A stretch of 64,000 nucleotides of DNA from Candidatus Woesearchaeota archaeon (GCA_964432435.1 CAYSNL010000002.1:18454-82453), one strand, 5' to 3'; numbered from the stretch's first letter, positions 4,672 through 43,649 are shown. Translations and numbers: made by a program. Notes: generated by a model from the letters alone, not told the origin.

Positions 4672-4756
4672 TTGTTATTTTTTAGATACACCTAGTGTGT
4701 TCAAGATTTATAATTAATTAAAATTATAACTGAAGGATATACTTTTTTAAGCTATT

Positions 4757-20041: not shown

Positions 20042-21445
20042 ATGTCAAAAGAACAATTTTTAATAAATAGAGAAATATTAGATCATAAAAATCCAGAAAG
20101 GGCAGTTTTAAAATCTCCTGAAGGATTAACTGATGAAACTGTTAGATTGATTTCAAAAGATAAAGATGAGCCTGAGTGGATATTGAAAAAAAGGTTAGCC
20201 GCTTTTAATTATTTTAAAGATATGCCTATGCCGAGTTGGGGCCCAAGTTTAGTTAATTTAGATTTAGATAAGATTGTTTATTATATCAAACCAGATGAAA
20301 AAGGTGGAGCTAGGAGTTGGGATGATGTTCCTGAAGATATTAAGAATACTTTTGAAAAGTTAGGAATACCAGAAATAGAAAGAAAATCTTTGGCTGGTGC
20401 TGGAGCTATTTACGAAAGTCAGGCTGCTTATCATAATTTAAAAAAGGAGTGGGAAAAGAAAGGGGTTATTTTTGAAGATATGGATGAAGCAGTTAAAAAA
20501 TATCCTGAATTAGTTAAAAAATATTTCATGACAAATTGTGTTCCTATTAATGACCACAAATTTGCTGCTTTACATGGTGCTGTTTGGTCGAGTGGTACAT
20601 TTATCTATGTTCCTAAAAATGTCAAAGTTACTATACCTTTACAAGCATATTTCAGAAAAAATGCTATAAGAGCAGGGCAGTTTGAACATACATTGATAAT
20701 TGCTGATGAAGGAAGTGAAGTTTCTTATGTGGAAGGTTGCTCTAGCCCACAATATAATGAAAGTTCTTTGCATGCTGGCTGTGTTGAGATTTATGTTATG
20801 AAAAACGCAAGAGCAAGATATAGCAGTATAGAAAACTGGAGCAAAGACACTTTTAACTTAAATACGAAAAGGGCCATAGTTGAAGAAAACGGAGTTATTG
20901 AGTGGATAAATGCAAATACTGGATCAGCTTGTACTATGTTATACCCTTCTTCAATATTAAAGGGAAAAAATTCGAAATCTGATTTTATTGGGGTTGCTTT
21001 GGCTGGAAAAGACCAAAACCAGGACACTGGGCATAAAGTCGTCCATTTGGCTGAGAACACTAGTTCAACTGTACAGAGTAAATCCATTAGTTTAGATGGT
21101 GGCATTACAACCTATAGAGGGCAACTTAAGATAGTAAAAGGAGCTAAAAATTCTAAATCAAGTGTTAAATGTGATGCTTTGATCTTGGATGATAAAAGTA
21201 AAAGTGATACGGTGCCATTTATTGAAATTAATGAAGAAAAAGTTGATATTGCTCATGAGGCTACAGCTGGAAAAATAGGTGCTGAGCAGTTATTTTATTT
21301 AATGTCTAGGGGATTAAGTGAAGAAGAGGCTATGAAAATGATTGTTTCTGGTTTTATTGAGCCGATAACCAAAGAATTACCTGGTGAATACGCCCTAGAA
21401 TTCAATAGACTGATAGAATTAGAGATGGAAGGCTCAGTAGGTTAA
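20042..21445 (+). CDS. sufB: Fe-S cluster assembly scaffold SufB
   Basis: 467 aa; SufB/SufD beta-helix family with long N-terminal region typical of SufB. Confidence 0.85.
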   Translation: MSKEQFLINREILDHKNPERAVLKSPEGLTDETVRLISKDKDEPEWILKKRLAAFNYFKDMPMPSWGPSLVNLDLDKIVYYIKPDEKGGARSWDDVPEDIKNTFEKLGIPEIERKSLAGAGAIYESQAAYHNLKKEWEKKGVIFEDMDEAVKKYPELVKKYFMTNCVPINDHKFAALHGAVWSSGTFIYVPKNVKVTIPLQAYFRKNAIRAGQFEHTLIIADEGSEVSYVEGCSSPQYNESSLHAGCVEIYVMKNARARYSSIENWSKDTFNLNTKRAIVEENGVIEWINANTGSACTMLYPSSILKGKNSKSDFIGVALAGKDQNQDTGHKVVHLAENTSSTVQSKSISLDGGITTYRGQLKIVKGAKNSKSSVKCDALILDDKSKSDTVPFIEINEEKVDIAHEATAGKIGAEQLFYLMSRGLSEEEAMKMIVSGFIEPITKELPGEYALEFNRLIELEMEGSVG

Positions 21446-21446
21446 A

Positions 21447-22547
21447 ATGCAAATTAATTTACCAATGGATGGTCCAGATTGGATTATGGAAAAAAGAAAA
21501 GAGTATTTTAACGAATTTGAAAATATGGAGTTAGATCTAAGTTTGAGATACGGGTTAAGTTTAAGGTTTGATTTAACTGGTCTGGATTTAAGTAATATAG
21601 AGTTGGGAAAGAGTAAAATTAAGGTTGATTGTGAAACTTTTGGGTTTGAAAACTTAGGTGAATATGAAGCCTTTTTTACGAATAACTTTGTAGCTGACCA
21701 AGATAAATTTACTTTATACCATGGTAGCTTATTCAATAATCTGGTAATAATGCATGTAAAAGAAGATAAAACTATCAATATTGACATTCTGTTGGAAGAT
21801 AAATATTATGCTGATCATATATTGATTATTATAGAAAAAAATATCAAAGCAAATATTATTGAAGATATAAAAGGGAATTGTAAATTTAGAACTGGTGTTG
21901 TTGAAATTTATTTAAAAGAGAATTCCAAATTAAATTACTTCTTAGTGGATGAGGTAAAGGAAGGGAACAACTTTACTATTTATAGGGGTTTATTAGATAA
22001 AGATAGTGAATTCAATATGGTTTCTAGTTTATTTTCTAATGGTATTAACAGAATGGAGAATAGTGTTGTGATGAAAGGTGAGAATGCTAGAAGCGAGGTA
22101 TATAATATTTATTTTGGAAATGAAAATAGTAGATATGATATTTATAATGCTATAATCCATAGAAACAGAGATTGTTTTAGCAATATGTTGAGTAAAGGCG
22201 TTGTGAAAGATAAAGCCCAAACTATTCATAGAGGGCTAATTGAAATTAAAAAAAATTTTCCAGGAAATAATGGTTATCAGAGAGAAGAGGCCTTAATCTT
22301 AAATGAAGGTGCAAAAGCGAATGCAGTTCCGAATTTAAAAATAGATAATGATGATGTTAGATGCACTCATGGAGTTGTTATAACTTATTTAGACGATGAG
22401 AAATTGTTTTATTTAATGAGCAGAGGGTTAAGTAGAGAAGAGGCTATTAGAAATTATCTGATTGGTTATTTTTTTCCTGTTATAACTAAATTTCCTGAAA
22501 ATTTGAAAGAAAAGATTATTAAAATAGTTTATGAGAAGTTAAAATGA
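21447..22547 (+). CDS. sufD: Fe-S cluster assembly protein SufD
   Basis: 366 aa SufB/D paralog directly after sufB; shared C-terminal 'KLFYLMSRGLS-EEA' block with SufB. Confidence 0.75.
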   Translation: MQINLPMDGPDWIMEKRKEYFNEFENMELDLSLRYGLSLRFDLTGLDLSNIELGKSKIKVDCETFGFENLGEYEAFFTNNFVADQDKFTLYHGSLFNNLVIMHVKEDKTINIDILLEDKYYADHILIIIEKNIKANIIEDIKGNCKFRTGVVEIYLKENSKLNYFLVDEVKEGNNFTIYRGLLDKDSEFNMVSSLFSNGINRMENSVVMKGENARSEVYNIYFGNENSRYDIYNAIIHRNRDCFSNMLSKGVVKDKAQTIHRGLIEIKKNFPGNNGYQREEALILNEGAKANAVPNLKIDNDDVRCTHGVVITYLDDEKLFYLMSRGLSREEAIRNYLIGYFFPVITKFPENLKEKIIKIVYEKLK

Positions 22548-23737
22548 GAAAAGAAGATTTTCCACTGTTGAATAAGAGAAAAATAATTTATTTAGATAGT
22601 GCTGCTACTACTCAGAAACCAGCTAGTGTAATTTATGCAATTAACGAGTTTTATACAAAATATAACTCTAATGTTCATAGGGGAGTTTATTCAATAAGTG
22701 AAGAGGCTACTTTAGAATATGAATCTTCAAGAGGAAAAGTTGCTGAGTTTATTAATGCTTTACCTTCTGAAATAATCTTTACAAAAGGAACAACTGAAAG
22801 CTTGAATTTGCTGGCTTATTCTTTGACTAGTGACTTAAAAGAAGATGATGAAATCTTATTAAGCGAAATGGAACATCACTCTAACCTAGTTCCCTGGCAA
22901 CAGTTAGCAAAAAAAAAGGACCTAAAGTTAAAATTCATTCCAATTAATGAAAATGGTGAACTAGAATTTAATCCGGATATTATAACTAAAGACACAAAGA
23001 TAGTTTCTATTACTCATGTTTCTAATGTTTTTGGAACTGTGAATGATATTAAAGCAATAGTTAAAGAAGCTCACAAGAAAGGAGCTTTAGTCATAGTGGA
23101 TGGAGCACAAAGTGTACCACATATGAAGGTCGATGTTAAAGATTTAAATGTTGATTTTTTAGTGTTTTCAGGACATAAAATGTTAGGGCCCATGGGTGTT
23201 GGTGTTTTATATGGTAAACTTGACTTATTAGACAGAATGACTCCGTTCAATTATGGAGGGGATATGATAAAAAAAGTATCATTAGAGAACACAGAATTCA
23301 ATGATATTCCTTGGAAATTTGAAGCTGGCACACCAAATGTTGTAGGTGTTATAGGATTAAAAAAAGCGATTGAGTATATTAACGAGGTTAGGATTGAGAA
23401 TATTGAAAAACATAGCAAGGAGCTAGCAAAATATGCAGTTGAAAAACTAAAAGAAATTGGGATTAAAGTTTATGGCAATCCCAGAAATAAATTGGGGATA
23501 GTTTCCTTTAACTTGAATGGAATGCATCCTCATGATGTTTCTAGTCTATTAGACCAGGAAGGAATATGTATAAGAGGCGGACATATGTGTTGCATGCCAT
23601 TAATGAATAAACTTGGTGTAAACGGAGCTTGTAGAATCAGTTTTTATATGTATAATGAGAAAGAAGAGGTTGATATGGTAATAAATACCTTAAATAAGAT
23701 TTTTGTTTTAGCAGGAAAAAATGGAATTACTTTATGA
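22544..23737 (+). CDS. sufS: cysteine desulfurase SufS (class V aminotransferase)
   Basis: 'FSGHKMLGPMGVGVLYG' PLP-lysine block, 'RGGHMCCMP' active-site Cys loop. Confidence 0.9.
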   Translation: MRKEDFPLLNKRKIIYLDSAATTQKPASVIYAINEFYTKYNSNVHRGVYSISEEATLEYESSRGKVAEFINALPSEIIFTKGTTESLNLLAYSLTSDLKEDDEILLSEMEHHSNLVPWQQLAKKKDLKLKFIPINENGELEFNPDIITKDTKIVSITHVSNVFGTVNDIKAIVKEAHKKGALVIVDGAQSVPHMKVDVKDLNVDFLVFSGHKMLGPMGVGVLYGKLDLLDRMTPFNYGGDMIKKVSLENTEFNDIPWKFEAGTPNVVGVIGLKKAIEYINEVRIENIEKHSKELAKYAVEKLKEIGIKVYGNPRNKLGIVSFNLNGMHPHDVSSLLDQEGICIRGGHMCCMPLMNKLGVNGACRISFYMYNEKEEVDMVINTLNKIFVLAGKNGITL

Positions 23738-24107
23738 AGAATTGATGGATCATTATAAAGATCCTAGGAATTATGGCATCTTAGAAGATTTTGATATTAG
23801 GCAATCTGACTCAAACCCCTTATGTGGTGATGAGGTTGTATTTACTGTTAAGATTGAAAATTCTAGGATTAAAGATATTAAATTTTCTGGTGCCGGATGC
23901 GCTATAAGTAAATCTTCTGATTCTATATTGACAGAATATGTTAAAGGTAAAACTATTATCGAGGTTCTGGAAATGAGTAGTGATGATTTTTTGAAGGTTT
24001 ATGGCTTCAAGCCAACTCCAATGAGGATAAAGTGCGCCTTACTCGGGTTTATTGCATTAAAGAAAGGTATTATTGTGTATTTGGGAGAAAAAAATGTTAG
24101 AGATTAG
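23721..24107 (+). CDS. sufU: SufU/IscU-like sulfur acceptor
   Basis: 'HYKDPRNYG', 'NPLCGDEV', 'SGAGCAIS' conserved Cys/Asp ligand blocks. Confidence 0.8.
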   Translation: MELLYEELMDHYKDPRNYGILEDFDIRQSDSNPLCGDEVVFTVKIENSRIKDIKFSGAGCAISKSSDSILTEYVKGKTIIEVLEMSSDDFLKVYGFKPTPMRIKCALLGFIALKKGIIVYLGEKNVRD

Positions 24108-24831
24108 GAATCTATGTGTAAATGTTGAAGGTAACCAAATATTAAAAGGTGTAAACTTAATAGCTAAAGATAATGAAGTAACTGTTTTAATGGGTCCGAA
24201 TGGTAGTGGTAAGTCAACTTTAGCAAATACTTTGATGGGTCATCCTAAATTTGAGGTTACTAAAGGAGAGATTGAATTAAACGGGGTTTCATTAAAAGAA
24301 CTAAGCCCTGATAAAAGAGCTAGGCTTGGATTATTTTTAAGTTTTCAATATCCACAAGAAATTTCTGGAATATCTGTTATAAACTTTTTGAGGGTTGCTT
24401 ATAATTCCATTAAAGAGAAGAAATTAGGCCTACTAGAGTTTAGGAAACTAATTGAGGGAAAAATGGAATTACTTAAAGTGGATAAAACTTTTGGTGATCG
24501 ATTTTTAAATCAAGGATTCTCTGGTGGAGAGAAAAAAAGAAATGAGATCCTACAGCTGGTTGTTTTAGAACCTAGATTTGCAATATTAGATGAAACCGAT
24601 TCTGGAACTGATGTAGACGCATTGAAAATAATAGCTAATGGATTAAATGCTGTTAAAAGTAATACTAAAATGGGTTGTCTTATTATAACTCATTATAGTA
24701 GAATACTCAAATATATAAAAGCAGATAGGGTTTTTATAATGGTGGATGGCAAGATGGTTAAAGAAGGTGGAAAAGAACTAGCTGATGAAATTGAGGATAA
24801 AGGATACTCAAAATACATCATAGATAAGTAG
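24094..24831 (+). CDS. sufC: Fe-S cluster assembly ATPase SufC
   Basis: Walker A 'GPNGSGKST', ABC signature 'GFSGGEKKR', Walker B 'ILDETDSG'. Confidence 0.9.
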   Translation: MLEIRNLCVNVEGNQILKGVNLIAKDNEVTVLMGPNGSGKSTLANTLMGHPKFEVTKGEIELNGVSLKELSPDKRARLGLFLSFQYPQEISGISVINFLRVAYNSIKEKKLGLLEFRKLIEGKMELLKVDKTFGDRFLNQGFSGGEKKRNEILQLVVLEPRFAILDETDSGTDVDALKIIANGLNAVKSNTKMGCLIITHYSRILKYIKADRVFIMVDGKMVKEGGKELADEIEDKGYSKYIIDK

Positions 24832-24920: not shown

Positions 24921-25490
24921 TTAAGAAAAACTTTGTCCGCAACCACACGTTGATGTTGCGCTTGGATTTGAGACCTTGAAACCTGCTCCTTGTAATGCCT
25001 CTACATAATCTATAGTTGAGCCTTTTATCATATCTAAACTTTCTTGGTCGATTAAAACTTTGACTCCGTTTTCTTCTATTACAATGTCTCCATCTTCTTT
25101 GGAATCTGTTAGTTCAAAATCATAATGATAGCCAGCGCAACCACCAGGACTAACTCTTATCTTTAATCCTTCTATGTGTTTTTTTTGGTTAGAAGCGATT
25201 TCCTTTAATTTATCCATCGCTTTTCTTGTTAACGTTATTTGTTTATTTTCTTCTATGTCTGTTATAGAGTCTGAAATAGTTTTATTAATTTCATCTACTA
25301 GTTTATTCATTTGTTCCTCTGTCATTCCGTGACCTAAGGTTCCCTGTTCTAAAGTTTCCCAATAAGATACATGGCAGCCTATACAGTGTAGGCCATTTGC
25401 TAACATGACCTCAATAGCTGCAGGGTATTTTTGGACTATATCTCCCATTGTCATGTCTTTTGTGACATGTTGTTGAATTGTCTTTTGCAT
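24921..25490 (-). CDS. DUF1858-like domain fused to A-type Fe-S carrier (IscA/HesB)
   Basis: C-terminus 'TCGCGQSFS' = IscA C-GCG-SF signature plus upstream Cys ('GGCAGY'); N-terminal 'GLHCIGCHVS' domain. Confidence 0.6.
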   Translation of the reverse strand: MQKTIQQHVTKDMTMGDIVQKYPAAIEVMLANGLHCIGCHVSYWETLEQGTLGHGMTEEQMNKLVDEINKTISDSITDIEENKQITLTRKAMDKLKEIASNQKKHIEGLKIRVSPGGCAGYHYDFELTDSKEDGDIVIEENGVKVLIDQESLDMIKGSTIDYVEALQGAGFKVSNPSATSTCGCGQSFS

Positions 25491-25571
25491 ATTAATTTTA
25501 TAATTAAACTGATTTTATAAAGCTTGCGTTTATTTATTAAAACAGGCATATTGTTGTCTTTCGTTAACAAT

Positions 25572-26483
25572 CTACTTTATTTCCCCTAACAAAATACAAG
25601 CCTTACAAATCTCTTTTGAGGTAGCTGAACCACATTTTTTACAGCTATTTACTTTTGCGTTTTTGAAATTTTCTTTTATTGAAGGTAGGATTGATAAAAA
25701 AGACGAGACAATGTTATATTTTGTACCAGGATAATTTTTTTCAAATTGATTTAACAGCTCAAGAACAGAATTTCTGTAGCTTAATTTAGCGTTTGGGCAT
25801 TCAACATATTTATCCATGATGTGATTAATAAAAGCGAATGTTGCTATTTCTTTTTCAGTTAAAAAATAGAATGGTTTTATTCTTCTTATAAACTTAGAAT
25901 CCTCTACTATGCCGGTTACTGGTCCTAAAACCGCTGAAGCTCTTGTATTTTTTCTAAACTGGTTCATTAAAATTGTTTGTGCTTCATCATCTAAATTATG
26001 CCCTGTTGCCAGTTTATTAACTCCTAATTCTAACGCTTTATCATTTAATATTTTTCTCCTAAAAACACCGCAAAAAGTACATGGTATGGTTTCTGGTCTT
26101 TTCTTTTTTATTTCGTCTAATGTTTTTCCGAACTCTTTTTTAAAAGAAAAAATATGAAGTTTGATTTCGTTTTTTTTACAGAGATATTTTACAAATTTGA
26201 AATTTGGATCTCTATAATTTTTAATTCCTTCGTCTATTGATAAGGCTATTAATTTTACTTTTGTGGGCTTGAAAATTTTATTTAAAATATATAATAAAGA
26301 CATAGAATCCTTTCCACCACTTACAGCGATTCCAATAGTATCGTTTTTGTCAACCATATTATAGATTCTAATTGTCTTTCTTACTTTTCTTTCAAAATAA
26401 AGATTGAAATGTTTTTTACAAAGAGAAACATTGCTATTTGGAAGATTAATTACGGGGTTTATTTTACAATTATTACATCCCAT
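25572..26483 (-). CDS. tRNA thiolation PP-loop ATPase (Ncs6/Ctu1/TtuA family)
   Basis: PP-loop 'VSGGKDS'; N-terminal 'CNNCK...C' and C-terminal 'CKKCG...CKAC' zinc-finger pairs. Confidence 0.75.
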   Translation of the reverse strand: MGCNNCKINPVINLPNSNVSLCKKHFNLYFERKVRKTIRIYNMVDKNDTIGIAVSGGKDSMSLLYILNKIFKPTKVKLIALSIDEGIKNYRDPNFKFVKYLCKKNEIKLHIFSFKKEFGKTLDEIKKKRPETIPCTFCGVFRRKILNDKALELGVNKLATGHNLDDEAQTILMNQFRKNTRASAVLGPVTGIVEDSKFIRRIKPFYFLTEKEIATFAFINHIMDKYVECPNAKLSYRNSVLELLNQFEKNYPGTKYNIVSSFLSILPSIKENFKNAKVNSCKKCGSATSKEICKACILLGEIK

Positions 26484-26524
26484 AACGATACTTCAAAGTA
26501 TGTTATTTATAAGGTTTATCACTT

Positions 26525-26665
26525 TTATATCTGGATTAGTTGAAGAATTCCAGTTATTAATAACCAAAGACCTACTGCAATGTTCAGAGACTTTGGCCAA
26601 ATCAAAATAATTAAACCTACAATAATAGCCAATACGGCTGATATTGTTATAGAAACTATTGCCAT
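26525..26665 (-). CDS. small hydrophobic membrane protein (46 aa)
   Basis: Hand-translated minus-strand ORF MAIVSITISAVLAIIVGLIILIWPKSLNIAVGLWLLITGILQLIQI; two TM segments; not in the ORF track (too short). Confidence 0.3.
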   Translation of the reverse strand: MAIVSITISAVLAIIVGLIILIWPKSLNIAVGLWLLITGILQLIQI

Positions 26666-26707
26666 CTATTATTATAAATTGTTTGTATATTTAAAACTAA
26701 TCTTTAG

Positions 26708-26920
26708 TTAACCGCCAGAAATAACACTTAACAATTTAATTTCATCATTGTTATTTAATTTAGTTTTTTCTGTTATTAATTCGTTATTTCTTGTTATTAT
26801 AACTGTGTTAGGATCAATATTTATTTTATTGAATAATTCATTAAAATTATTAACATTTACTAATTTTTTTTCATTTGTTCTTTCAATAAAGACTTTAATT
26901 TTCATATTTTTAATTTCCAA
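26708..26920 (-). CDS. ubiquitin-like small archaeal modifier/sulfur-carrier protein (SAMP/MoaD/ThiS fold)
   Basis: 70 aa ending '...LLSVISGG*' with diglycine directly before the stop; 11-nt overlap with the upstream E1. Confidence 0.65.
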   Translation of the reverse strand: MEIKNMKIKVFIERTNEKKLVNVNNFNELFNKINIDPNTVIITRNNELITEKTKLNNNDEIKLLSVISGG

Positions 26921-27848
26921 TATATTTAGAATATAAACTTTTTGCTTCCTTTTCAGAATTAGCTTTTATTAAAACTGAATTTTTAAATATTGTTAAATTT
27001 TTGAATTGAAACGCTGTTTTAAAATCTTTAATTCCAAATCTTTTTAAGTTTGATTTTATTTTATTAAAGTTGAAGTCTCCATTTATTTTATAAGTCCCCG
27101 GGATGCAGTATCTTACAAAATTTAATTGTTTTTTATTACTTAAATATTCAAATTTTTTATTACAGTGGGTACAATTAGTGTCTTTTTTTACTTTTATTTT
27201 TAATAATTCATTTTTATTTATATTAAAGAAAATTAAATCTTTTTCTGGAGTTTTATTTGTTAATATCTTGATTGCTTCGTTTACTTGAAGTGAGGATATT
27301 AAACTTGTGATGGTGTTTAAAATTCCAGAAGTTGCACAAGTTTCTCCTGTTTTCAAATCTTTTAAGATACATTTTATGCAAGGTCCTTTAGGTAGGATAT
27401 TAAAAATGTAACCAGAATCTTTAATAGCTGATGAATAGATCCAAGGAATGTTATTTTTAGTACAAAATTCATTTATTAAAAATCTTGTTTCTAAATTATC
27501 AGTGCAGTCTAAAATTAAATCTGATTTTATTATATTTACATTTTTATAATTTAAATCATCAAAATAAGATTTGATTTTTATTTCAGAATTTATTTCATTT
27601 AAAACTTTTCTAACTATTACTGCTTTAGGTTTATTCAAATGTTTTTCTGTAAACAAAGTTTGTCTTTGTAGATTAGTTAGTTCTACTAAGTCACGGTCAA
27701 TTAATATTAATTTTCCAATTCCTGCTCTAGTTAATAAATTAGCTGATGTTGAACCAAGAGCACCTAATCCAACTATTGAAACTGTTGATTTTTTTAATTT
27801 TTCTTGAGCTTTTTTTCCAATTAAGATTTCCTGACGTAAATAGCGCAT
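26910..27848 (-). CDS. E1-like ubiquitin-activating enzyme homolog (MoeB/ThiF/UbaA)
   Basis: 'RQEILIG...VSIVGLGALGSTSANLLTRAGIGKLILIDRDLVELTNLQRQ' nucleotide-binding fold; CxxC pairs 'CIKC' and 'CATSG'; ~90-aa extra C-terminal region containing 'CTHC'. Confidence 0.8.
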   Translation of the reverse strand: MRYLRQEILIGKKAQEKLKKSTVSIVGLGALGSTSANLLTRAGIGKLILIDRDLVELTNLQRQTLFTEKHLNKPKAVIVRKVLNEINSEIKIKSYFDDLNYKNVNIIKSDLILDCTDNLETRFLINEFCTKNNIPWIYSSAIKDSGYIFNILPKGPCIKCILKDLKTGETCATSGILNTITSLISSLQVNEAIKILTNKTPEKDLIFFNINKNELLKIKVKKDTNCTHCNKKFEYLSNKKQLNFVRYCIPGTYKINGDFNFNKIKSNLKRFGIKDFKTAFQFKNLTIFKNSVLIKANSEKEAKSLYSKYIGN

Positions 27849-27879
27849 GTAACTATTTTAGTAGTAAACATTTAAAAAA

Positions 27880-28203
27880 TTAACTAAAATCAAAAAAAAG
27901 TTTAAATTCTGGCACTAATCTTGGATATTTTTTTCTAAGCCACTCTTCAATGAAGTTTGTGTAACAATACGCACAGGAATTCATGTTATTTTTACAAAAT
28001 AAACATGGAAGGTTATTGGAGTAATCTGTAATGGTTTTAAACTCTTTAGTTTGTTTTTTAAGACTTGGTATAAGTCTTGGTTCTCTTTTTCTAAGCCATA
28101 CTTCTATTTCTTTTTCTAAACAGTCTTGGCATACCGGGTTAGTTATTGCTTCCTGGCATGCAATGCATACATTTTCCATATTTTTTTGTTTCATTTTTAA
28201 CAC
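27880..28203 (-). CDS. internally duplicated zinc-ribbon protein, unknown function
   Basis: Two repeats of C-x2-C-x6/7-C-x2-C followed by 'E(V/E)WLRK(R/K)xPRL(I/V)P': CIACQEAITNPVCQDC..EVWLRKREPRLIP / CLFCKNNMNSCAYC..EEWLRKKYPRLVP. Confidence 0.4.
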   Translation of the reverse strand: MLKMKQKNMENVCIACQEAITNPVCQDCLEKEIEVWLRKREPRLIPSLKKQTKEFKTITDYSNNLPCLFCKNNMNSCAYCYTNFIEEWLRKKYPRLVPEFKLFFDFS

Positions 28204-30319: not shown

Positions 30320-30583
30320 TCATAAATTGTTTGAAGTTAATTTCAATAATCTTCTTAATTTGGGTTCATCAAAACCCACAACTATATTCCCGTCAATGTC
30401 TATTACTGGAACGCCTTGTTGACCTGATTTTTCAATCATCTCTTGTGCCGCTTTAAAATTTCTTCCCACATCTATCGATTTGAATTCTATCTTGTGTTCT
30501 TTAAAAAATTCTTCGGCCTTATGACACCAAGGACAGGTTTGTGTTCTATAAAGCAATACTTTGTGATCTGTCATTTTATTCAT
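30320..30583 (-). CDS. glutaredoxin/NrdH-like redoxin
   Basis: 'CPWCHKAEEFF' CxxC active site, 'GVPVIDIDG' cis-Pro region; 87 aa. Confidence 0.7.
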   Translation of the reverse strand: MNKMTDHKVLLYRTQTCPWCHKAEEFFKEHKIEFKSIDVGRNFKAAQEMIEKSGQQGVPVIDIDGNIVVGFDEPKLRRLLKLTSNNL

Positions 30584-30761
30584 CCAATGATTATGCTTGA
30601 TTTATTTTTATTGTCTGGTTTTATTTAAATCTATTGTTTATAAAGACTTTAGGTTAAAGTCTTAAAAAGATCTTTAAGGTTTTCTAATAGTTGAGATCTG
30701 ATTATAGACAGATTTAAGACAACGTTTATAAAGAGTTTAATTTTTCTAAGTTAAGATTAAA

Positions 30762-31943
30762 ATGGATTTAAAAGAAGAAGCACTAAAGATGCATAGGATA
30801 AATAAAGGTAAATTAGAGACAAGGTCTAAAATTTTAGTTGATACAAAGCAAAAATTAAGCTTAGTTTACACTCCTGGGGTCGCAGAGGTTTCTAAAGAAA
30901 TTGCACTAGATAAAACTAAGATATATGATTATACCTTTAAATCTAATTCTGTTGCTGTTATTACTGATGGCAGTGCTGTGCTTGGCTTAGGAAATATCGG
31001 AGCAGAGGCTTCATTGCCTGTTATGGAAGGTAAATGTGTTCTTTTTAAAGAATTAGCTAATATAGATGCTTTTCCAATTTGTATAAAAACACAAGAGGAG
31101 AGGGAAATAATAAATATAGTAAAAAATATAGCTACTGTTTTTGGTGGAATTAATCTCGAGGATATATCTGCTCCTAGGTGTTTTAAAATAGAAGAAGCTT
31201 TGCTCGATATTGGCATTCCTGTGATGCATGATGATCAACATGGAACAGCTATCGTTGTTTTAGCTGCTTTAATAAATTCTGTAAAAGTTGTAAACAAAAA
31301 AATTGAGAATTTAAAAGTTGTTATTAATGGAGCAGGAGCAGCTGGAATAGCTATAACTAAGCTACTGATGTGTTTAGATATAGATAAAAAAATATGTACT
31401 TCTGTCAAAGAAATAGTTCTTTGTGATAGCAAAGGTATTATTTATGATGGTAGGCCAGACTTGAATGAGTTCAAAACAAAAATGGCAAAGATAACAAATC
31501 AGTCTATGAGAAAAGGGACATTAAAAGATGCGTTAGAAGGAGCAGATGTTTTTATTGGTGTTTCAAGTGGGAATTTAGTAACAGCAAATGATTTAAAAAA
31601 AATGAATGAAAGGGCAATTGTATTTGCTATGGCAAATCCTGTCCCCGAGATAATGCCTGATGAAGCAAATAAAATTGCTGTTGTTGTTGGTACTGGTAGG
31701 AGTGATTTTCCGAATCAGATAAATAATTCTTTAGCTTTTCCTGGGGTGTTTAGAGGGGCTTTAGACGTGAAAGCAACTAAAATAAATAATGAAATGAAGA
31801 TTGCTGCTGCCTATGCGTTAGCTAATTATATAAAACCAACAGTAAATAATATATTACCTTATACTTTAGACAAGGGTGTTGTATCAAAAGTTGCGCAAGC
31901 AGTAAAGAAAGCAGCAATAGAAACAAACGTGGTTAGACATTAG
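30762..31943 (+). CDS. NAD(P)-dependent malic enzyme
   Basis: 'YTPGVAEVS', 'MHDDQHGTAIVVLAALINS', 'INGAGAAGIA' malic-enzyme blocks. Confidence 0.85.
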   Translation: MDLKEEALKMHRINKGKLETRSKILVDTKQKLSLVYTPGVAEVSKEIALDKTKIYDYTFKSNSVAVITDGSAVLGLGNIGAEASLPVMEGKCVLFKELANIDAFPICIKTQEEREIINIVKNIATVFGGINLEDISAPRCFKIEEALLDIGIPVMHDDQHGTAIVVLAALINSVKVVNKKIENLKVVINGAGAAGIAITKLLMCLDIDKKICTSVKEIVLCDSKGIIYDGRPDLNEFKTKMAKITNQSMRKGTLKDALEGADVFIGVSSGNLVTANDLKKMNERAIVFAMANPVPEIMPDEANKIAVVVGTGRSDFPNQINNSLAFPGVFRGALDVKATKINNEMKIAAAYALANYIKPTVNNILPYTLDKGVVSKVAQAVKKAAIETNVVRH

Positions 31944-31951
31944 TCTATCAT

Positions 31952-32617
31952 TTAAAGAATACATATACCTTCTTTCCCCTCTTTTTTGATTTTATACATA
32001 GCATGATCAGCTGTAGTTAATAAGGCATCTCTTATATCTTGAACATGATACCGATCTAATATTAAATCTCCAAAACCATTAACTTTACCTTTTTCTAGAG
32101 AACTTATTCCAGCACTAAAAGTAATTCCATTTACTTGATATTCTGGGAATATTATTCCAGTTGAACTTTTTTCATAAATTCTAGAAACAACGTGATTAGC
32201 TAATTTTTTACTAGCTTGTGGTAAGACTATAACAAATTCATCTCCACCAACTCTAGAAGCTTGATCATGTGGTCTTATTTGAGAAAGTAAACTTCTTGCA
32301 AATGCTTTCAAGATTTGGTCGCCTGCTTCGTGTTTATATGAATCATTTACTATTTTAAAATTATTAAGATCTAGGTAAGCAAGTGATAATGGTGGATGAT
32401 CTAGATTATGGTTTCTCATACTTCTTAGAATATTTTGAATTTCTTTTTCTAGGAATGTGTATAATCCTCTTCTATTTGGTATTTCGGTAAGAGGATCTAC
32501 AGTAGCCATTTCTCTATACATCATTAATTCGTGTCTAGTTACTTCAAGTTCATTTCTTAATCTAACTATTTCTCTTTCCAAGTTAGATTCCTGAGTTTCT
32601 TGTTGGTTGTTTGACAT
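31952..32617 (-). CDS. GGDEF-domain protein (diguanylate cyclase) with N-terminal coiled coil
   Basis: 'DPLTEIPNRRGL', 'LDLNNFKIVNDSYKHEAGDQIL', 'RVGGDEFVIVLP', 'SAGISS', 'ADHAMYKIKKEGKEG': all canonical GGDEF blocks, including an intact GGDEF. Confidence 0.8.
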   Translation of the reverse strand: MSNNQQETQESNLEREIVRLRNELEVTRHELMMYREMATVDPLTEIPNRRGLYTFLEKEIQNILRSMRNHNLDHPPLSLAYLDLNNFKIVNDSYKHEAGDQILKAFARSLLSQIRPHDQASRVGGDEFVIVLPQASKKLANHVVSRIYEKSSTGIIFPEYQVNGITFSAGISSLEKGKVNGFGDLILDRYHVQDIRDALLTTADHAMYKIKKEGKEGICIL

Positions 32618-32679
32618 GTAAAAAAGAAGACGAAGCCAATTTATAAATCTTTCGTTATGTTACTTTTGTTTAGTAGTGA

Positions 32680-33108
32680 TTATTTAACTATTAAATTTCC
32701 TTTCATTTCTTTATGTCCTGAACCACAAAATACATTACAGAAAAAAGTAAACTCTCCTGATTTATCAGCTATAAACTCTATAGTCTCAGTTTTACCGACA
32801 TCTACTTTCTGGCTTATTCCATATTCTGGAATAGCTATGCCGTGATTTACATCTGTACTTGTTAATTTAATCTTAACTTTATCTCCTTTGTTTACTGTTA
32901 TGGTTGATGGATCAAATTCAAATTTTTTTGCAGTCATATCTATTTCTACTGTTTTCCCAGTTAGTTGATAATTTGTATCGTCATTTCCTGTGTTTACTAC
33001 ATTAACTTGGGGTAAAGTTGTAGAAATTGTTTCTTGTTGTGTTTTAGACTGACATCCGGCCAAAATAAATAAGGCAAGTATTAAAAAAATTAATAAAATA
33101 TTTTTCAT
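32680..33108 (-). CDS. CuA-type cupredoxin lipoprotein
   Basis: Lipobox 'LAGC' after signal peptide; C-terminal 'FFCNVFCGSGHKEM' = C-x3-C-G-x2-H-x2-M CuA-type ligand set with upstream 'HG'; internal Met start (ORF-track start 33153). Confidence 0.6.
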   Translation of the reverse strand: MKNILLIFLILALFILAGCQSKTQQETISTTLPQVNVVNTGNDDTNYQLTGKTVEIDMTAKKFEFDPSTITVNKGDKVKIKLTSTDVNHGIAIPEYGISQKVDVGKTETIEFIADKSGEFTFFCNVFCGSGHKEMKGNLIVK

Positions 33109-33149
33109 AACTCTTTTTTTAAATTCTATTTTATTTAAAAACTTTTTCT

Positions 33150-33515
33150 TCAATCTCTAAATTTTGAGTCCAAACTTAATTTTTTATTTTCTGATAAAGA
33201 TAAAGATAAAAGAGCTGTAAAAATACCTAAATCCCTTACTGCAATATCATTATAACCCAAAGACATGATTATAGGAATCATGCTTATTGCTAGTAACAGA
33301 GAAGCCAATCTAGTAAATAAACCAATTATTAATAAAATTGCCATTAATACTTGAAAAATTGCCATTATAATTATTACTGTATTACCCGATATTGGAATAA
33401 GAGATGGTACTAAAGAAGACCAGATTTCCGGTTGTAGAATACTAGTTACACCAAACCACAGGAAAACTATTCCTAACCCTATTCTTAAAATTAATGTACT
33501 ATAGTCCTTAAGCAT
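33150..33515 (-). CDS. DoxX-family membrane protein
   Basis: 121 aa, 3-4 TM helices, 'RIGLGIVFLWFG' DoxX-like N-terminus; 4-nt overlap with the cupredoxin gene. Confidence 0.55.
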   Translation of the reverse strand: MLKDYSTLILRIGLGIVFLWFGVTSILQPEIWSSLVPSLIPISGNTVIIIMAIFQVLMAILLIIGLFTRLASLLLAISMIPIIMSLGYNDIAVRDLGIFTALLSLSLSENKKLSLDSKFRD

Positions 33516-33663
33516 AAAAAATAAAATATTCTTTAGTTTAAAAGTTTTTTTGAATATACTGGCTTTGTCTAAATAGTCTTCAAAACATTTTACTCTTTAC
33601 ACAAAAATTAGACTTTATACCCAAGAGTTACTTATTACACGAAGCTGAATATACTTAAATAAA

Positions 33664-34755
33664 TTAACCAAAAGTAAAAGCACTAAATTTAAATTCTTTT
33701 GATGAAGTTGTTAGTTTTAATGTGTAGGTCCCATATTTTGAATTAACCACGCTATATAGTCTTGCCTCTTTGATTAAAATAATTGCTTTGTTGTTTTTAA
33801 ACTGAACGTCAGATCCAGTCTGTTCTTTTGTTATTATATTACCGTCAATATAAACTTCTAATTCTATTGGTTTAATAGGTTTATCTGTTACTATATTAAC
33901 TGTTGATGCTGTGAATTTAAGAATTATAGATCCATTCTCGTCTTGATTTTCTAAGCTATCTGGATTGTTTTTCCACTTTCCATCCAAATAAAGCTTGTCT
34001 GGTTGAATGTCCTCTGGTGATTTGTAATCTACTATTTGGTCTGGTTTATATCCTTCTTTATTTCCTAAATTTTGTCCTCTTGGTGTTGCAAATTGATAAC
34101 CAGCATATGTTTCTGGTGTTATTCTGAACCTTATTGCTGTTTCTGGTTCTTTAGTCAAATTCATATTTGTTACATTCTCGCCTAATTCTTTTAATAGCTC
34201 TTGTATTTTCTTCTCTATTTCTTCATAATTACCTTCTCCAAAATGAAAATATTTTATATAACCATCTTTATCTATTAAATATTTAGCTGGCCAATATCTA
34301 TTTTCATAATTATTCCATGTAGAGTAATCATTATCCATTCCAACAGGATATTTTATTTTAAAATCTTTTACAGCCTGCTCAACGTTTTCTGTTTTCTTTT
34401 CAAAATCAAATTCAGGTGTATGAATCCCTATTATTTGCAATCCTTTTTTAGAATATTTTTCATCCCATTCTTTTAAATATGGCAAAGTTCTGATGCAGTT
34501 TATGCAAGTATAAGTCCAGAAGTCAACTAAAACCACTTTTTTCCCTTGAAATTCATTTATTGTTAGCGGATTTGAATTTATCCAGTGTTTAATTCCGATT
34601 ATCTCAGGTGCTTTGCCAGTTTCTGATTTTTCAGAAACGTTAATTATTTTACAACCTATACCTGGAATGCAAACTCCTCTTTCTACCATTATTATCACTC
34701 CTACTATTATGATTATAGTAAATATTAATAAAGTTCTTCTAATTCTGGTTTCCAT
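33664..34755 (-). CDS. membrane-anchored TlpA/AhpC-TSA-like thioredoxin-fold protein with extra C-terminal domain
   Basis: 'LVDFWTYTCINCIRTLPYL' Trx-like CxxC; ~150-aa C-terminal beta-rich extension. Confidence 0.65.
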   Translation of the reverse strand: METRIRRTLLIFTIIIIVGVIIMVERGVCIPGIGCKIINVSEKSETGKAPEIIGIKHWINSNPLTINEFQGKKVVLVDFWTYTCINCIRTLPYLKEWDEKYSKKGLQIIGIHTPEFDFEKKTENVEQAVKDFKIKYPVGMDNDYSTWNNYENRYWPAKYLIDKDGYIKYFHFGEGNYEEIEKKIQELLKELGENVTNMNLTKEPETAIRFRITPETYAGYQFATPRGQNLGNKEGYKPDQIVDYKSPEDIQPDKLYLDGKWKNNPDSLENQDENGSIILKFTASTVNIVTDKPIKPIELEVYIDGNIITKEQTGSDVQFKNNKAIILIKEARLYSVVNSKYGTYTLKLTTSSKEFKFSAFTFG

Positions 34756-35497
34756 TTTTTATTGTTATCGATGTCAAATAAACTAAAAATGCAGGTATTA
34801 ATGGTAATACACAAGGACTTAAAAACGAAATTAAGCCAGCCAAAAAAGCTATTCCTAGATTTATGGATGATCCTAAGTCTATGTAATTTAAATTAAATTT
34901 TAAAAGTAAATTTGCTACAAATGACAAATTTGCTATTTTAGCTAAATTGCTTGTGAAAACTAATATACCCATAGTAATTAATATAGTTCCAAAAATATAA
35001 TTTATGTATTTTAAATAAGGTAGCATTTTTTGAATAAATTTATTTGCCTGATTTGTGAATAATCCAACTAAAAGAAAAGGTATTCCTAATCCTAATGAAT
35101 AAGAAAACAATAATAAAAATGCCTTTGTTGGCTGTGTTATAGCTAATGTTAAAATTCCTCCTAAAATCGCACCTATGCAAGGAGTCCACCCAACTGCAAA
35201 AGCAGAGCCGAACAAAAATGATGCTACATATGAAGATCTAAATTTTCTTTTAATTTGAAATTTATGTTCTTTTTCTAGGAATGGTATTTTTAGTAAATTT
35301 AACAAATAAAGTCCAAAGATCATTATTATTATACCACCGACTCTGCTTAGCCATTTTAAAACTATTAAAGAAGAGTTTGAGAATATTGTTTGAAGTAAAA
35401 TACCGACTAATGAAAAAACTATGCTGAAACCAAGAACAAAGAAAAAACTATTAATAAAAATATTCCATTGATTTTTTGCCATATTTAACAACCACAC
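34739..35497 (-). CDS. ccdA: cytochrome c-type biogenesis/thiol-disulfide transporter CcdA (DsbD transmembrane core)
   Basis: Polytopic; conserved Cys in TM1 ('WTPCIGAILG') and TM4 ('FLSPCVLPLIP'); likely start at second Met (35482). Confidence 0.75.
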   Translation of the reverse strand: MWLLNMAKNQWNIFINSFFFVLGFSIVFSLVGILLQTIFSNSSLIVLKWLSRVGGIIIMIFGLYLLNLLKIPFLEKEHKFQIKRKFRSSYVASFLFGSAFAVGWTPCIGAILGGILTLAITQPTKAFLLLFSYSLGLGIPFLLVGLFTNQANKFIQKMLPYLKYINYIFGTILITMGILVFTSNLAKIANLSFVANLLLKFNLNYIDLGSSINLGIAFLAGLISFLSPCVLPLIPAFLVYLTSITIKNGNQN

Positions 35498-40869: not shown

Positions 40870-40915
40870 CTTGTTTTTAGAAAAATTTATATTTATAACT
40901 CTTTTGATATTAAGA

Positions 40916-41695
40916 ATGATTAATTTTAATATTGACCCGGTACTTTTAAGATTAGGACCTATTCAAATAAGATATTATGGGCTTGTTTATGTTATTGGAC
41001 TTTTACTTGGTTTGTACATATTAAATAAAGCAAGGAAAAAAGGTATTTTGGATTTAAAAGATGGTCAAGAATATGATCTAATATTTTATATAATGTTGGG
41101 TATGTTGATTGGTGCTAGGTTATTTCATGTTATCTTTTGGGGTTTAAATTATTATATTAGTAATCCTTTAAAAATATTTTATTTGTGGGAAGGAGGAATG
41201 AGTTTTCATGGGGGTCTAATTGGTATTCTAGTAAGCGGATATATTTACTGTGAAAAAAATAAGATAAATGTGGCAAAACTAGCAGATGTTTTAACTTTAC
41301 CTGCTGTTTTTATTTTAGCCTTAGGGAGGATTGTAAATTTTATTAATCAAGAAATATATGGAACAATAACGGCTTTGCCTTGGTGTGTAGAATTTAAAAG
41401 CATAGAAGGTTGTAGACATCCTGTGCAACTTTATGCAGCTTTAGGTAGATTTATAGCTTTTTTTATATTATTAAAATTTGGAAATAAACATAAAGAAGGC
41501 TTTGTTTTTTGGAATTTTGTTTTTCTTTTTGGTCTAGGTAGATTATTTTTAGATTTTTTAAGAGAGGATATAAGATATCTTGGGCTAAGCTTTGGACAGT
41601 GGTTTAGCTTAATTATGTTAATTTTAAGCGGTTATGTTCTATTTAGATTTTATATGGAGGATATTAAAAAAGTATTTTCTTTTAAGAAGAAATAA
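40916..41695 (+). CDS. lgt: prolipoprotein diacylglyceryl transferase homolog
   Basis: 'IDPVLLRLGPIQIRYYGLVYVIGLLLGLYI', 'GARLFHVIFWG', 'PLKIFYLWEGGMSFHGGLIG' match Lgt signature blocks; ATG 40916 (ORF-track TTG start 40871). Confidence 0.7.
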   Translation: MINFNIDPVLLRLGPIQIRYYGLVYVIGLLLGLYILNKARKKGILDLKDGQEYDLIFYIMLGMLIGARLFHVIFWGLNYYISNPLKIFYLWEGGMSFHGGLIGILVSGYIYCEKNKINVAKLADVLTLPAVFILALGRIVNFINQEIYGTITALPWCVEFKSIEGCRHPVQLYAALGRFIAFFILLKFGNKHKEGFVFWNFVFLFGLGRLFLDFLREDIRYLGLSFGQWFSLIMLILSGYVLFRFYMEDIKKVFSFKKK

Positions 41696-42259
41696 ACCAA
41701 AGACTATAATTATTATACTTAAAATAAATGAATTAAAAAATAATTTATACGCAAAGTCTTTAAAAAATTCATAAGGGAATAAATTAATTAAATTATCTTT
41801 TGAAGGGTCTAATAAATATAAATCATTATTAAAGAGCAGTTTATGAAAAGTGTTGTTGAAAAAGTCCTCAAAATTTATAAAATAAAAAGATAAAATTATG
41901 ATTATTGATGTTATACCTGAAATTATGAGTGATTTTCCCAGGGTTTTATAGTTTAAGATTATTAGGACTATTAATAATACTATGATTATATACAATAAGA
42001 TTAATGTTTTGTATATTAGGTTCTTAACATCTTTTAAATGAAACTTTTCCCTTTCATTAAAGAAATCTGTTGTTAAATCTTTATTATTTTGGAAATAGGA
42101 GAACAGATTCTTTGTGTTTGTTAGTGCTAATTCTTTCGGTATGGAAATATTTAGTTTATCAAATTCCTTCTGATAGAAACTTAGGTTATAAATTAAAAGC
42201 CTAAAATTAAATAAAAAAATGAATAATACTAATATGATTATTAAAAGTGTTTTTCTCAT
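41639..42259 (-). CDS. polytopic membrane protein, unknown function
   Basis: 206 aa, 4-5 hydrophobic segments. Confidence 0.3.
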   Translation of the reverse strand: MRKTLLIIILVLFIFLFNFRLLIYNLSFYQKEFDKLNISIPKELALTNTKNLFSYFQNNKDLTTDFFNEREKFHLKDVKNLIYKTLILLYIIIVLLIVLIILNYKTLGKSLIISGITSIIIILSFYFINFEDFFNNTFHKLLFNNDLYLLDPSKDNLINLFPYEFFKDFAYKLFFNSFILSIIIIVFGLFLLKRKYFFNILHIKSK

Positions 42260-42396: not shown

Positions 42397-43365
42397 ATGG
42401 GAGAAAAAATGGAAAATAATAGTGTTAATGATAAAAAATCAAGTTTCTTGGGTAAAATCAAGTTTTGGCAAATTTCTAGTATTGTGCTATTAATATTATT
42501 TGTAGTGTCTATAATAGCTAATTTTTCAGGCAGAGGTTTATCTGGTGCTATTAGTAAAGATGATGCACAAGGAAAAATACAGCAATATGCTAATATTGTT
42601 ACAGGTGGGGCTATTGTTGATGTTGGTAGTATATCTGATGACGGGGAAAATGGGTTGTATAAAGTACCTCTTACTGTAAAAGGGCAAATTATGACTGGTT
42701 ATATAACGAAAGATGGGAAATTATTTTTTCCTGCAGCTGTTAATCTAGATGATTTTTTTAAACAGGTTGGAGACATAGAGGGTAAAACAACTGAACTACT
42801 TGATAATGAGCAAGTTCAAGTACCTAATGAACCTGTTAGGGTTAGTGTAGATGACGATCCTGTTTTAGGGGATAAAAATGCTCCTGTGATTATTCTAGAA
42901 TTTAGTGATTTCCAATGTCCTTATTGTGGTAGATTTGAGAGCCAAGCCTTTGATCAAATTAAGAAAGATTATATTGATACTGGCAAGGTTAAGTTTGTTT
43001 ATAGGGATTTTCCATTAAACAGCATACATCCTTATGCACAAAAAGCTGCTGAAGCTTCTGAATGTGCCGATGAACAAGGGAAATACTGGGAATATCACGA
43101 TAAATTGTTTGAAAATCAGCAGGCTTTGACTGTTGAAGATTTAAAGGAATACGCAAAAGAATTAAAACTGAGCATAGATAAGTTTAACGATTGTTTAGAC
43201 TCAGATGCTATGGTGGAAGAAGTTCAGAAAGATCTTAGTGAAGGTGAAAGCTATGGTGTTACTGGTACACCTGCTTTTTTTATTAACGGTCTTTTATTAG
43301 AGGGAGCTCAGCCATTTGAGAACTTCAAGAAAATCATTGACGAGGAATTAAGCAAAACAGCTTAA
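42397..43365 (+). CDS. membrane-anchored DsbA-like thiol:disulfide oxidoreductase
   Basis: N-terminal TM; 'FSDFQCPYCGRFE' CPYC active site, 'GVTGTPAFFING' cis-Pro loop. Confidence 0.65.
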   Translation: MGEKMENNSVNDKKSSFLGKIKFWQISSIVLLILFVVSIIANFSGRGLSGAISKDDAQGKIQQYANIVTGGAIVDVGSISDDGENGLYKVPLTVKGQIMTGYITKDGKLFFPAAVNLDDFFKQVGDIEGKTTELLDNEQVQVPNEPVRVSVDDDPVLGDKNAPVIILEFSDFQCPYCGRFESQAFDQIKKDYIDTGKVKFVYRDFPLNSIHPYAQKAAEASECADEQGKYWEYHDKLFENQQALTVEDLKEYAKELKLSIDKFNDCLDSDAMVEEVQKDLSEGESYGVTGTPAFFINGLLLEGAQPFENFKKIIDEELSKTA

Positions 43366-43382
43366 TTTTTTTATTTTTTAAA

Positions 43383-43646: not shown

Positions 43647-43649
43647 TGG

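Follow-up and report, generated by a model that had tools for sequence, protein, structure and literature searches.

A probable ubiquitin-like tRNA 2-thiouridine sulfur-relay operon beside the SUF genes of a Woesearchaeota archaeon and its recurrent zinc-ribbon neighbor

We analyzed a stretch of 64,000 nt from the genome of a Candidatus Woesearchaeota archaeon (GCA_964432435.1 CAYSNL010000002.1:18454-82453). This entire stretch is referred to here as the window, and all positions are counted within it. Its G+C content is about 29%, and the close homologues of its proteins are found in metagenome-assembled genomes of Nanoarchaeota and Woesearchaeota. Our study centers on a row of six minus-strand genes (24921-28203) in which a ubiquitin-like (Ubl) carrier protein, a putative E1 activating enzyme and a PP-loop tRNA thiolase are encoded next to genes for the assembly of iron-sulfur (Fe-S) clusters. 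Read along the minus strand, these genes code for a duplicated zinc-ribbon protein that we designate ZnR, the E1 protein, the carrier, a small membrane peptide, the thiolase, and an IscA-type Fe-S carrier; they are separated by 31, 4, 42, 41, and 81 nt, respectively. A preliminary description of this region, derived from the DNA sequence, had listed the same minus-strand genes, and all of them were recovered at those positions and with those identities when we inspected open reading frames (ORFs) and conducted family searches. Gaps of 4 to 81 nt on a single strand suggest that the relay genes are co-transcribed.

On the opposite strand, all five components of a SUF system are encoded adjacent to each other (20042-24831, plus strand): sufB (20042-21445) and sufD (21447-22547), both recognized through the Pfam domain SUFBD_core, sufS (22544-23737; Aminotran_5, 1.6e-151, 505 bits), sufU (23721-24107; NifU_N, 8e-27, 94 bits), and the gene for the ABC ATPase SufC (24073-24831; ABC_tran). 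This sufBDSUC block converges on the relay gene row. It had been described as lying downstream of the relay genes; given its convergent orientation, it is not downstream within the same transcript. The predicted folding of the iscA-sufC intergenic region was no better than that of shuffled sequence, promoter-like and terminator-like sites occurred in the window at background level, and scans of the window with Rfam and for tRNA genes were empty.

The E1 protein (26910-27848, minus strand) consists of 312 amino acids and is of the ThiF/MoeB type, with a score of 215 bits against PF00899 (ThiF). Its adenylation domain (residues 1-231; 27156-27848) accounts for this match (9.7e-64) and aligns with Escherichia coli ThiF (1zud; 1.4e-36); MoeB can be aligned as well, with both CxxC zinc motifs and the loop Cys retained. 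The domain contains the GxGxxG loop and a pair of CxxC motifs of the zinc type (C157/C160 and C226/C229), and in the alignment Cys171 takes the position of the Cys in the catalytic loop of E. coli ThiF. These five Cys residues (C157, C160, C171, C226, C229) are invariant in 48 homologues. The AlphaFold2 model of the protein reached a predicted local distance difference test (pLDDT) value of 91.6, and a Foldseek comparison of this model with ThiF (1zud) and MoeB (1jw9) yielded template-modeling (TM) scores of 0.88-0.90 on the target. Both the domain score and the superposition of the predicted structure agree with the earlier classification as a putative MoeB/ThiF-type E1. Among the curated models, NCBIfam PRK12475 of the MoeB/ThiF subfamily matches best; it is covered from position 4 to 338 of 338 with 228 bits versus a cut-off of 510. 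The match to the ThiF model TIGR02356 (200 bits) is likewise below its curated cut-off, and that to the UbaA equivalog NF047750 is far short of it (137 bits versus 450).

The preliminary description had drawn attention to an unusual, Cys-containing extension of about 90 amino acids at the C-terminus of the E1. The extension and its Cys are real, but unusual they are not: the extension corresponds to the long-known and widespread PRK12475 architecture, which is present in many bacteria, and PRK12475 matches the window protein over its full length, including this C-terminal domain (residues 232-312, with the stop codon 26910-27155). A frameshift artefact can be dismissed, given that the E1 query with its extension is matched over 100% of its length by more than 100 homologues from archaea, and that the models of the extension, the structure prediction which the preliminary description had called for, are confident (pLDDT of about 90). 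In these models, a strand bearing the conserved Cys248 leads into a compact beta-alpha-beta4-alpha module. For the isolated extension, strands are predicted at its positions 21-25, 43-44, 48-51, 54-57, and 60-64, and helices at 30-38 and 68-80. Extension and Cys, the latter within a CG[SR] motif, are kept in Woesearchaeota, Acidobacteria, Planctomycetes, Cyanobacteria, and Cohnella (at least 70 archaeal and bacterial homologues). Besides CG[SR], the motifs (L/M)T(I/V)F.D.R..(I/V)K and A(K/R)SLYS(K/R)Y(I/V)G are common to the window E1 and PRK12475-type proteins. Short E1 homologues of 228-248 amino acids without this domain occur in other Woesearchaeota (comparison loci L059, L062, L064, L066, L068, and L073), and the C-terminus is divergent in L053, L054, L057, and L063.

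The modeled topology of the extension is compatible with a TBP-like (helix-grip, beta-alpha-beta4-alpha) fold. An E1 core joined to a TBP-like domain at the C-terminus has been described before (Makarova and Koonin, 2010; PMC2948915), and a ThiF-MoeZ-MoeB group whose members end in a TBP domain has been listed without experimental data (Brindefalk et al., 2013; PMC3597702). We use the label TBP-like on the authority of this literature, since our own structure and profile comparisons did not reproduce the fold assignment: a Foldseek search of the isolated extension against the PDB yielded nothing below an E-value of 0.48, a profile search against PDB sequences gave no match, hhalign returned a probability of 0.4% against 14 TBP half-domains taken from the fetched loci, and a Pfam TBP match was obtained for one of 31 extension members, weakly (E 0.056). 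The neighborhoods of bacterial PRK12475 genes showed no clear conserved neighbor, with noisy ORF calling in this high-GC DNA. A persulfide relay site may be provided by the Cys that is invariant in the TBP-like domain, in analogy to the Cys of the rhodanese in Uba4 and MoeZ.

Directly behind the E1 gene lies the gene for a TtuB/SAMP2/ThiS-like carrier (26708-26905, minus strand), whose 65 residues end in SVISGG and which scores 30.4 bits against PF02597 (cut-off 22.5). It had previously been read as a 70-residue beta-grasp protein with a Gly-Gly end whose gene overlaps that of the E1 by 11 nt. Its sequence points to the beta-grasp family, and the Gly-Gly end is present. The greater length and the overlap result from taking the first TTG as the start codon and can be discarded: the ATG at 26905, located 4 nt after the E1 stop codon (26910-26912), gives 65 amino acids, a form that is on record, and the orthologues comprise 63-68 residues and begin with MK(I/V). 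A profile built from 28 orthologues found TtuB (5ztb_E; 1.7e-13), Pyrococcus SAMP2 (5lda_B; 2.8e-11), and PF1061 (4e-11) in the PDB; with the same profile, E. coli ThiS and MoaD scored 0.1 and 1e-3, respectively. The structure of TtuB was solved with the protein in complex with TtuA. As a single sequence, the window protein has its best match in ThiS. It remains below the cut-offs of the SAMP2 models NF041919 (20.2 versus 70) and PF21965 (15.5 versus 27). The labels SAMP and UbaA given to carrier and E1 in the preliminary description thus express family kinship, but the respective equivalog cut-offs are missed widely and we saw no sign of protein conjugation.

The PP-loop protein (25572-26483, minus strand; 303 amino acids; PF01171, 7e-20) is a tRNA 2-thiouridine synthetase of the TtuA/NcsA (Ncs6/Ctu1) type. 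It can be aligned end to end with PH0300, the TtuA of Pyrococcus horikoshii (1.8e-52), and with the NcsA of Methanococcus maripaludis (3.8e-49); its PP-loop motif AVSGGKDS aligns with that of PH0300, as do the Cys residues of a CxxC...C triad ('PCTFCG' and 'ECP'), which we take to be the [4Fe-4S] cluster ligands. CxxC...CxxH and CxxC...CxxC patterns are found at its termini, where the zinc fingers TtuA_LIM_N (residues 3-27) and zn-ribbon_14 (residues 280-300) were detected, both below the gathering score. These matches to solved [4Fe-4S] enzymes bear out the tRNA thiolase that had been predicted; profile searches also placed E1 (PF00899) and carrier (PF02597) above the Pfam cut-offs. Among the NCBIfam equivalogs, NcsA ranks first (228.8 bits versus a cut-off of 500), followed by Pyrococcus TtuA (209.3 versus 450). 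Since both cut-offs are missed, the sequence of the enzyme does not discriminate between U34 and U54 of the tRNA as its target.

The last gene of the row (24921-25490, minus strand) encodes a 189-residue fusion of DUF1858, a redox-disulfide domain with a CxxC motif (PF08984, 4.7e-15; TIGR03980, 74 bits versus 45), to an A-type carrier of the IscA/ErpA/SufA kind (PF01521, 3.1e-22; TIGR00049, 125.3 bits versus 58.8) in which the ligand motifs 'GGCAGY' and 'CGCGQSF' are present. The DUF1858 domain also occurs as a stand-alone protein of 67 amino acids near znR and ttuA in locus L112 (7489-7692, minus strand).

To assess the conservation of this gene arrangement, we collected 80 genomic loci in which relatives of the E1 are encoded, 59 of them archaeal, and searched them iteratively with the window proteins. 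The carrier gene (thiS) and ttuA were found within 10 kb of the E1 gene in 29 of the 59 archaeal loci, usually within 3.5 kb and on the same strand, and thiS stood directly next to ttuA in about half of all archaeal loci. That archaeal Ubls of the ThiS family are associated with PP-loop ATPases and E1 proteins was already reported in 2010 (Makarova and Koonin, 2010; PMC2948915). Genes of the suf system were present within 10 kb of the E1 gene in nine archaeal loci. Close relatives of the window (L006-L009, L091, and L094; E1 proteins 75-79% identical) possess a ZnR-E1-(variable insert)-thiS-ttuA row that is convergent on sufC and sufU. In four species (L012-L015), a one-strand array of sufB-sufD-sufS-sufU-sufC-iscA-thiS-ttuA is divergent from E1, and the iscA gene between sufC and thiS is unfused and lacks DUF1858; E1 faces sufB also in L016, L021, and L027. 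The physical linkage between relay and suf genes is therefore maintained in convergent as well as in co-directional layouts and survives rearrangement. The linkage fits what is known of TtuA and NcsA, whose activity requires cysteine-derived sulfur along with a [4Fe-4S] cluster. These counts give substance to the co-localized sulfur-trafficking set that the preliminary description had discerned.

In another clade of Woesearchaeota (L028, L034, L041, L046, and L066), the row thiS-ttuA-E1 continues with a short gene, ThiI-like as judged from its N-terminal sequence alone, and then with the gene for TBP, about 1-3 kb downstream of E1. In conjunction with several loci in which znR lies between thiS-ttuA and the TBP gene, this order suggests that a tRNA-sulfur neighborhood next to TBP is ancestral. 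A stand-alone E1 gene was found in the Woesearchaeota locus L001 beside a ribonucleotide reductase gene with an intein and a LAGLIDADG endonuclease (1892-5737); it is followed there by RtcA, a gene for which is present in the window as well (1866-2909).

The first gene of the row codes for ZnR, a protein of 104 amino acids when read from the ATG (27880-28194, minus strand) or of 107 from a GTG at 28203. Its two halves are homologous (41% identity over 37 residues; E 5e-10), so that the internal duplication noted before is genuine; each half contains a CxxC-x6-8-CxxC knuckle followed by a W-L-x4-P-x-L helix. No family in Pfam, NCBIfam, or the PDB matched ZnR above the cut-off. Sub-threshold matches to zf-C4pol (PF14260) were obtained for 31 of 66 ZnR members (best E 1.3e-5), and DZR gave sub-threshold matches as well. 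Like zf-C4pol, the CysA/CysB module of B-family DNA polymerases, and like DZR, ZnR possesses two successive Cys4 motifs; unlike them, it is a stand-alone protein of about 100 amino acids without polymerase context, and the resemblance may be confined to the pattern of the Cys residues. While a word-based search found four close relatives, a full profile search found 352 representatives, 93 of them at an E-value of 1e-10 or better and most about 100-120 amino acids in length. Eight Cys residues are invariant or nearly so in this family, which carries the signature C..C.E.[IV]TNP[IVL]C..C[LI]. Domain fusions turned out to be of no help as a functional clue, since the longer members merely gain a third zinc ribbon.

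With a subset of the family selected by motif, we fetched 80 metagenomic loci centered on znR, which at 80% identity represent 65 lineages. Relay or suf genes are located within 3 kb of znR in 33 lineages (ttuA in 14, thiS in 13, sufS and sufU in 10 each, E1 in seven, sufC in three, and iscA in one); of the 41 lineages for which 4 kb or more of flanking sequence is available, 23 possess such a neighbor. For a genome of about 1 Mb, we put the chance expectation at roughly 4%, a rough estimate and not a measured control. The association is realized in at least five layouts, including ZnR>E1>, <ttuA<thiS ZnR>TBP>, thiS>ZnR>ttuA>, ZnR> <sufU<sufS, ZnR>ttuA> <sufU<sufS, and sufS>sufU> <ttuA ... ZnR>, and these varied layouts are found among ZnR proteins that are 30-45% identical to the window copy. 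Among the E1-centered loci, znR is present only in the close relatives of the window.

There is thus strong genomic association between ZnR and sulfur genes, and the place that the preliminary description had given this protein in the cluster is matched by a recurrent neighborhood. Our literature search found no paper describing this association. On this guilt-by-association basis, we propose that ZnR is an accessory factor of sulfur or Fe-S traffic, which might be an adaptor or a reductant or else a carrier that binds metal or Fe-S. It could possibly act as a persulfide adaptor between the desulfurase and the E1-carrier pair, in the place taken elsewhere by a rhodanese, TtuD, or Tum1, or as a reductant or cluster carrier that resembles rubredoxin or binds Fe-S. 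We suggest only tentatively, and with somewhat less than even confidence, that ZnR defines a hitherto undescribed accessory component of DPANN sulfur trafficking that works with SufS/SufU and the E1/TtuB/TtuA relay. Since its gene is often divergent from thiS-ttuA and directly upstream of that for TBP, a function as a regulator is a fair alternative.

The fourth gene of the row (26525-26665, minus strand) encodes a hydrophobic membrane peptide of 46 amino acids. The preliminary description had counted it among the members of the operon; the peptide is a genuine DUF3096 protein (PF11295, 29.8 bits versus a cut-off of 23.3) but not a conserved member, and we discarded it as a component of the relay. 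No homologue was present in any of 170 comparison loci, and in the equivalent gaps the close relatives carry other, unrelated small genes, such as a DUF4258/DUF2283 pair or unknown ORFs. The DUF3096 peptide is therefore probably a lineage-specific insert outside of the relay. The intervals between E1 and thiS and between thiS and ttuA are hot spots for such small inserts (L006, 11010-11442; L008, 10664-10951; L003, 5301-6059), which comprise a possibly toxin-antitoxin-like DUF4258/DUF2283 pair, DUF5652, DUF3096, and unknown ORFs ranging from 82 to 159 amino acids.

Taking these data together, we consider it highly probable that the cluster represents a tRNA 2-thiouridine sulfur-relay operon of a DPANN archaeon of the Woesearchaeota/Nanoarchaeota type, situated beside a SUF operon that serves it. 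Family assignments, structural models, and comparative genomics all support a Ubl sulfur relay tied to the Suf machinery, as had been proposed from the DNA sequence. The gene identities, motifs, domain folds, and recurrent linkage reported above are observations on which a chemical route can be modeled by homology to TtuA/TtuB/TtuC of Thermus and to archaeal NcsA/SAMP2/UbaA. In this route, the pyridoxal-phosphate-containing cysteine desulfurase SufS would form a persulfide and pass it on to SufU. The E1 would adenylate the C-terminal Gly-Gly of the 65-residue carrier, and the acyl-adenylate would be converted to a thiocarboxylate; candidates for the delivery of sulfur to the acyl-adenylate without a rhodanese are the Cys of the C-terminal E1 domain and ZnR. 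SufBCD would build the [4Fe-4S] cluster to be held by three Cys residues of TtuA/NcsA, with the adjacent A-type carrier probably delivering it. TtuA/NcsA would then adenylate C2 of the target uridine, and the sulfur of the carrier thiocarboxylate would be transferred to give 2-thiouridine.

The wobble uridine U34 is most likely the target of this reaction, with U54 as a less likely alternative; like the roles of the E1 Cys domain and of ZnR, this assignment is inferred. Three points favor U34: the hosts are groundwater DPANN archaea rather than thermophiles, the score of the NcsA model slightly exceeds that of the TtuA model, and an Elp3-like gene adjoins ttuA in locus L003.

The proposed system shares its main features with the TtuA-TtuB-TtuC(-TtuD) pathway for 2-thioribothymidine-54 (s2T54) of Thermus thermophilus and with the TtuA enzymes of Pyrococcus and Thermotoga: a PP-loop thiolase that has a [4Fe-4S] cluster and two zinc fingers, a Gly-Gly beta-grasp carrier of about 65 amino acids for which TtuB is the best match of solved structure, an E1 of the ThiF/MoeB type, and sulfur from a cysteine desulfurase. 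Unlike in Thermus, the three genes of the window are adjacent to each other and lie beside suf and iscA, a zinc-ribbon gene is linked to them, the window revealed no TtuD-like protein (rhodanese), and the E1 possesses the TBP-like domain with its conserved Cys. The host, in contrast to Thermus, is probably mesophilic and genome-reduced, which again makes U34 the likelier target. The same three protein families constitute the NcsA-SAMP2-UbaA system of Haloferax volcanii, which has its counterparts in NcsA of M. maripaludis and in the eukaryotic Ncs6/Ctu1-Urm1-Uba4 proteins; adenylation, a thiocarboxylate, and Fe-S-dependent formation of 2-thiouridine at position 34 (s2U34) would be the chemistry common to these systems and the window. 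However, the window proteins score below the NcsA, SAMP2, and UbaA cut-offs and display no sign of conjugation, and the Haloferax genes are dispersed, whereas those of the window form an operon-like row. In Uba4 the C-terminus is a rhodanese, while in the window E1 it is the non-rhodanese TBP-like domain. The closest likeness of the E1 is to PRK12475-type proteins, with which it is collinear throughout, but it remains well below the threshold of that model.

Several observations weigh against a dedicated relay operon served by SUF. Clustering is not obligatory, since 23 of the 59 archaeal E1 loci have no partner genes within 10 kb, and in the window the suf genes are on the strand opposite to the relay genes. 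The cut-offs of the NcsA, TtuA, UbaA, and SAMP2 equivalogs are all missed, which leaves exact orthology and the target position uncertain, and the host archaeon is uncultivated. In addition, 32 of the 65 ZnR lineages are without a relay or suf neighbor, and TBP is close to ZnR in 15 of 81 loci, mostly as the next gene.

Some of these observations would be expected if the relay core operates as described but the proximity of suf, iscA, and znR is mere inherited synteny of a small genome without functional coupling, with ZnR being, for instance, a small transcription factor. The scarcity of suf genes near E1 would fit this explanation, as would the restriction of znR in E1 loci to close relatives of the window and its position directly upstream of TBP and divergent from thiS-ttuA in many loci, a layout typical of regulators. 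We nevertheless regard simple synteny as unlikely, though worth keeping in mind, since rearrangement has not dissolved the suf linkage (relay and suf genes are convergent in the window clade and co-directional in L012-L015), since ZnR recurs near ttuA, thiS, E1, sufS, or sufU in about half of its lineages and in several layouts, far above the rough chance expectation, and since the dependence of TtuA/NcsA on an Fe-S cluster and on cysteine-derived sulfur provides a biochemical reason for the linkage.

The E1 and the carrier might also have protein conjugation (sampylation or urmylation) as their main role, with an E1 of the UbaA type and tRNA thiolation as a secondary task. SAMP2/UbaA of Haloferax and TtuB/TtuC of Thermus are dual-function systems (see PMC2948915), and the carrier profile matches Pyrococcus SAMP2 in addition to TtuB. 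We consider conjugation as the main role improbable, however. Both proteins fall far short of the UbaA and SAMP2 equivalogs (137 versus 450 and 20 versus 70, respectively); the conserved partners are genes for tRNA thiolation and Fe-S assembly and not proteasome or JAMM genes; and a motif scan of all ORFs in the 64-kb window revealed neither a JAMM/MPN motif nor a second Gly-Gly ORF. Together with negative Pfam scans of about 45 window proteins, this answers in the negative, for the window, the question of a JAMM desampylase raised in the preliminary description. A secondary role of the carrier in conjugation is possible.

It is most improbable that E1 and carrier constitute a ThiF/ThiS or MoeB/MoaD pair for thiamine or molybdopterin biosynthesis next to which TtuA/NcsA lies by accident: the top-ranking curated E1 models are of MoeB/ThiF origin (PRK12475 and TIGR02356) and the carrier taken singly is closest to ThiS, but the MoeB/ThiF cut-offs are all missed, the carrier profile prefers TtuB by many orders of magnitude over ThiS and MoaD, thiG, thiH, thiE, and moaE are absent from the cluster and from the scanned window ORFs (Pfam scans of the roughly 45 window proteins found no rhodanese, Elp3, ThiG, or MoaE), the neighborhood of thiS and ttuA recurs in about half of the archaeal loci, and archaeal ThiS genes lack a contextual link to thiamine genes (PMC2948915).

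Beyond the relay and suf genes, the window contains a thiol-redox island (30320-35497 and 42397-44033) with genes for a glutaredoxin, a cupredoxin-like protein, DoxX, a thioredoxin-like/AhpC protein that ends in Thioredoxin_10, and DsbD and DsbA-like proteins; it is syntenic in close relatives (L006). A GGDEF diguanylate-cyclase protein with an intact motif (31952-32617, minus strand; PF00990, 1.6e-31) has syntenic copies in L006 and L007; to our knowledge, proteins of cyclic di-GMP signaling are not expected in archaea. Bacterial-type lipoprotein machinery is represented by the prolipoprotein diacylglyceryl transferase Lgt (40871-41695, plus strand; PF01790, 3e-62) and the adjoining lipoprotein intramolecular transacylase Lit (41639-42259, minus strand; PF07314, 1.8e-26), which are unusual for an archaeal genome and may have been acquired by gene transfer. 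A protein of 490 amino acids (50250-51722, minus strand) combines an MtrA-like N-terminus with a thymidylate-synthase core and the pterin-binding DUF4346.

The core cluster of Ubl carrier, E1, and PP-loop thiolase is of a known kind and is a new example of it in a DPANN genome. The ZnR family, its recurrent and unannotated partner, is new, and this partner above all, together with the conserved proximity of suf and iscA, makes the cluster a modest variant. A single locus of a minimal genome displays the whole proposed route of sulfur from cysteine to tRNA, with SufS/SufU, SufBCD, the A-type carrier, the E1, its carrier, and TtuA/NcsA, and the persistence of the linkage through rearrangements supports the view that Fe-S cluster assembly and tRNA thiolation form one module in these archaea. 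For the rhodanese-free step from the desulfurase to the Ubl thiocarboxylate, our analysis provides two leads: the ZnR family of double Cys4 proteins of about 100 amino acids, and the widespread TBP-like E1 domain with its invariant Cys.

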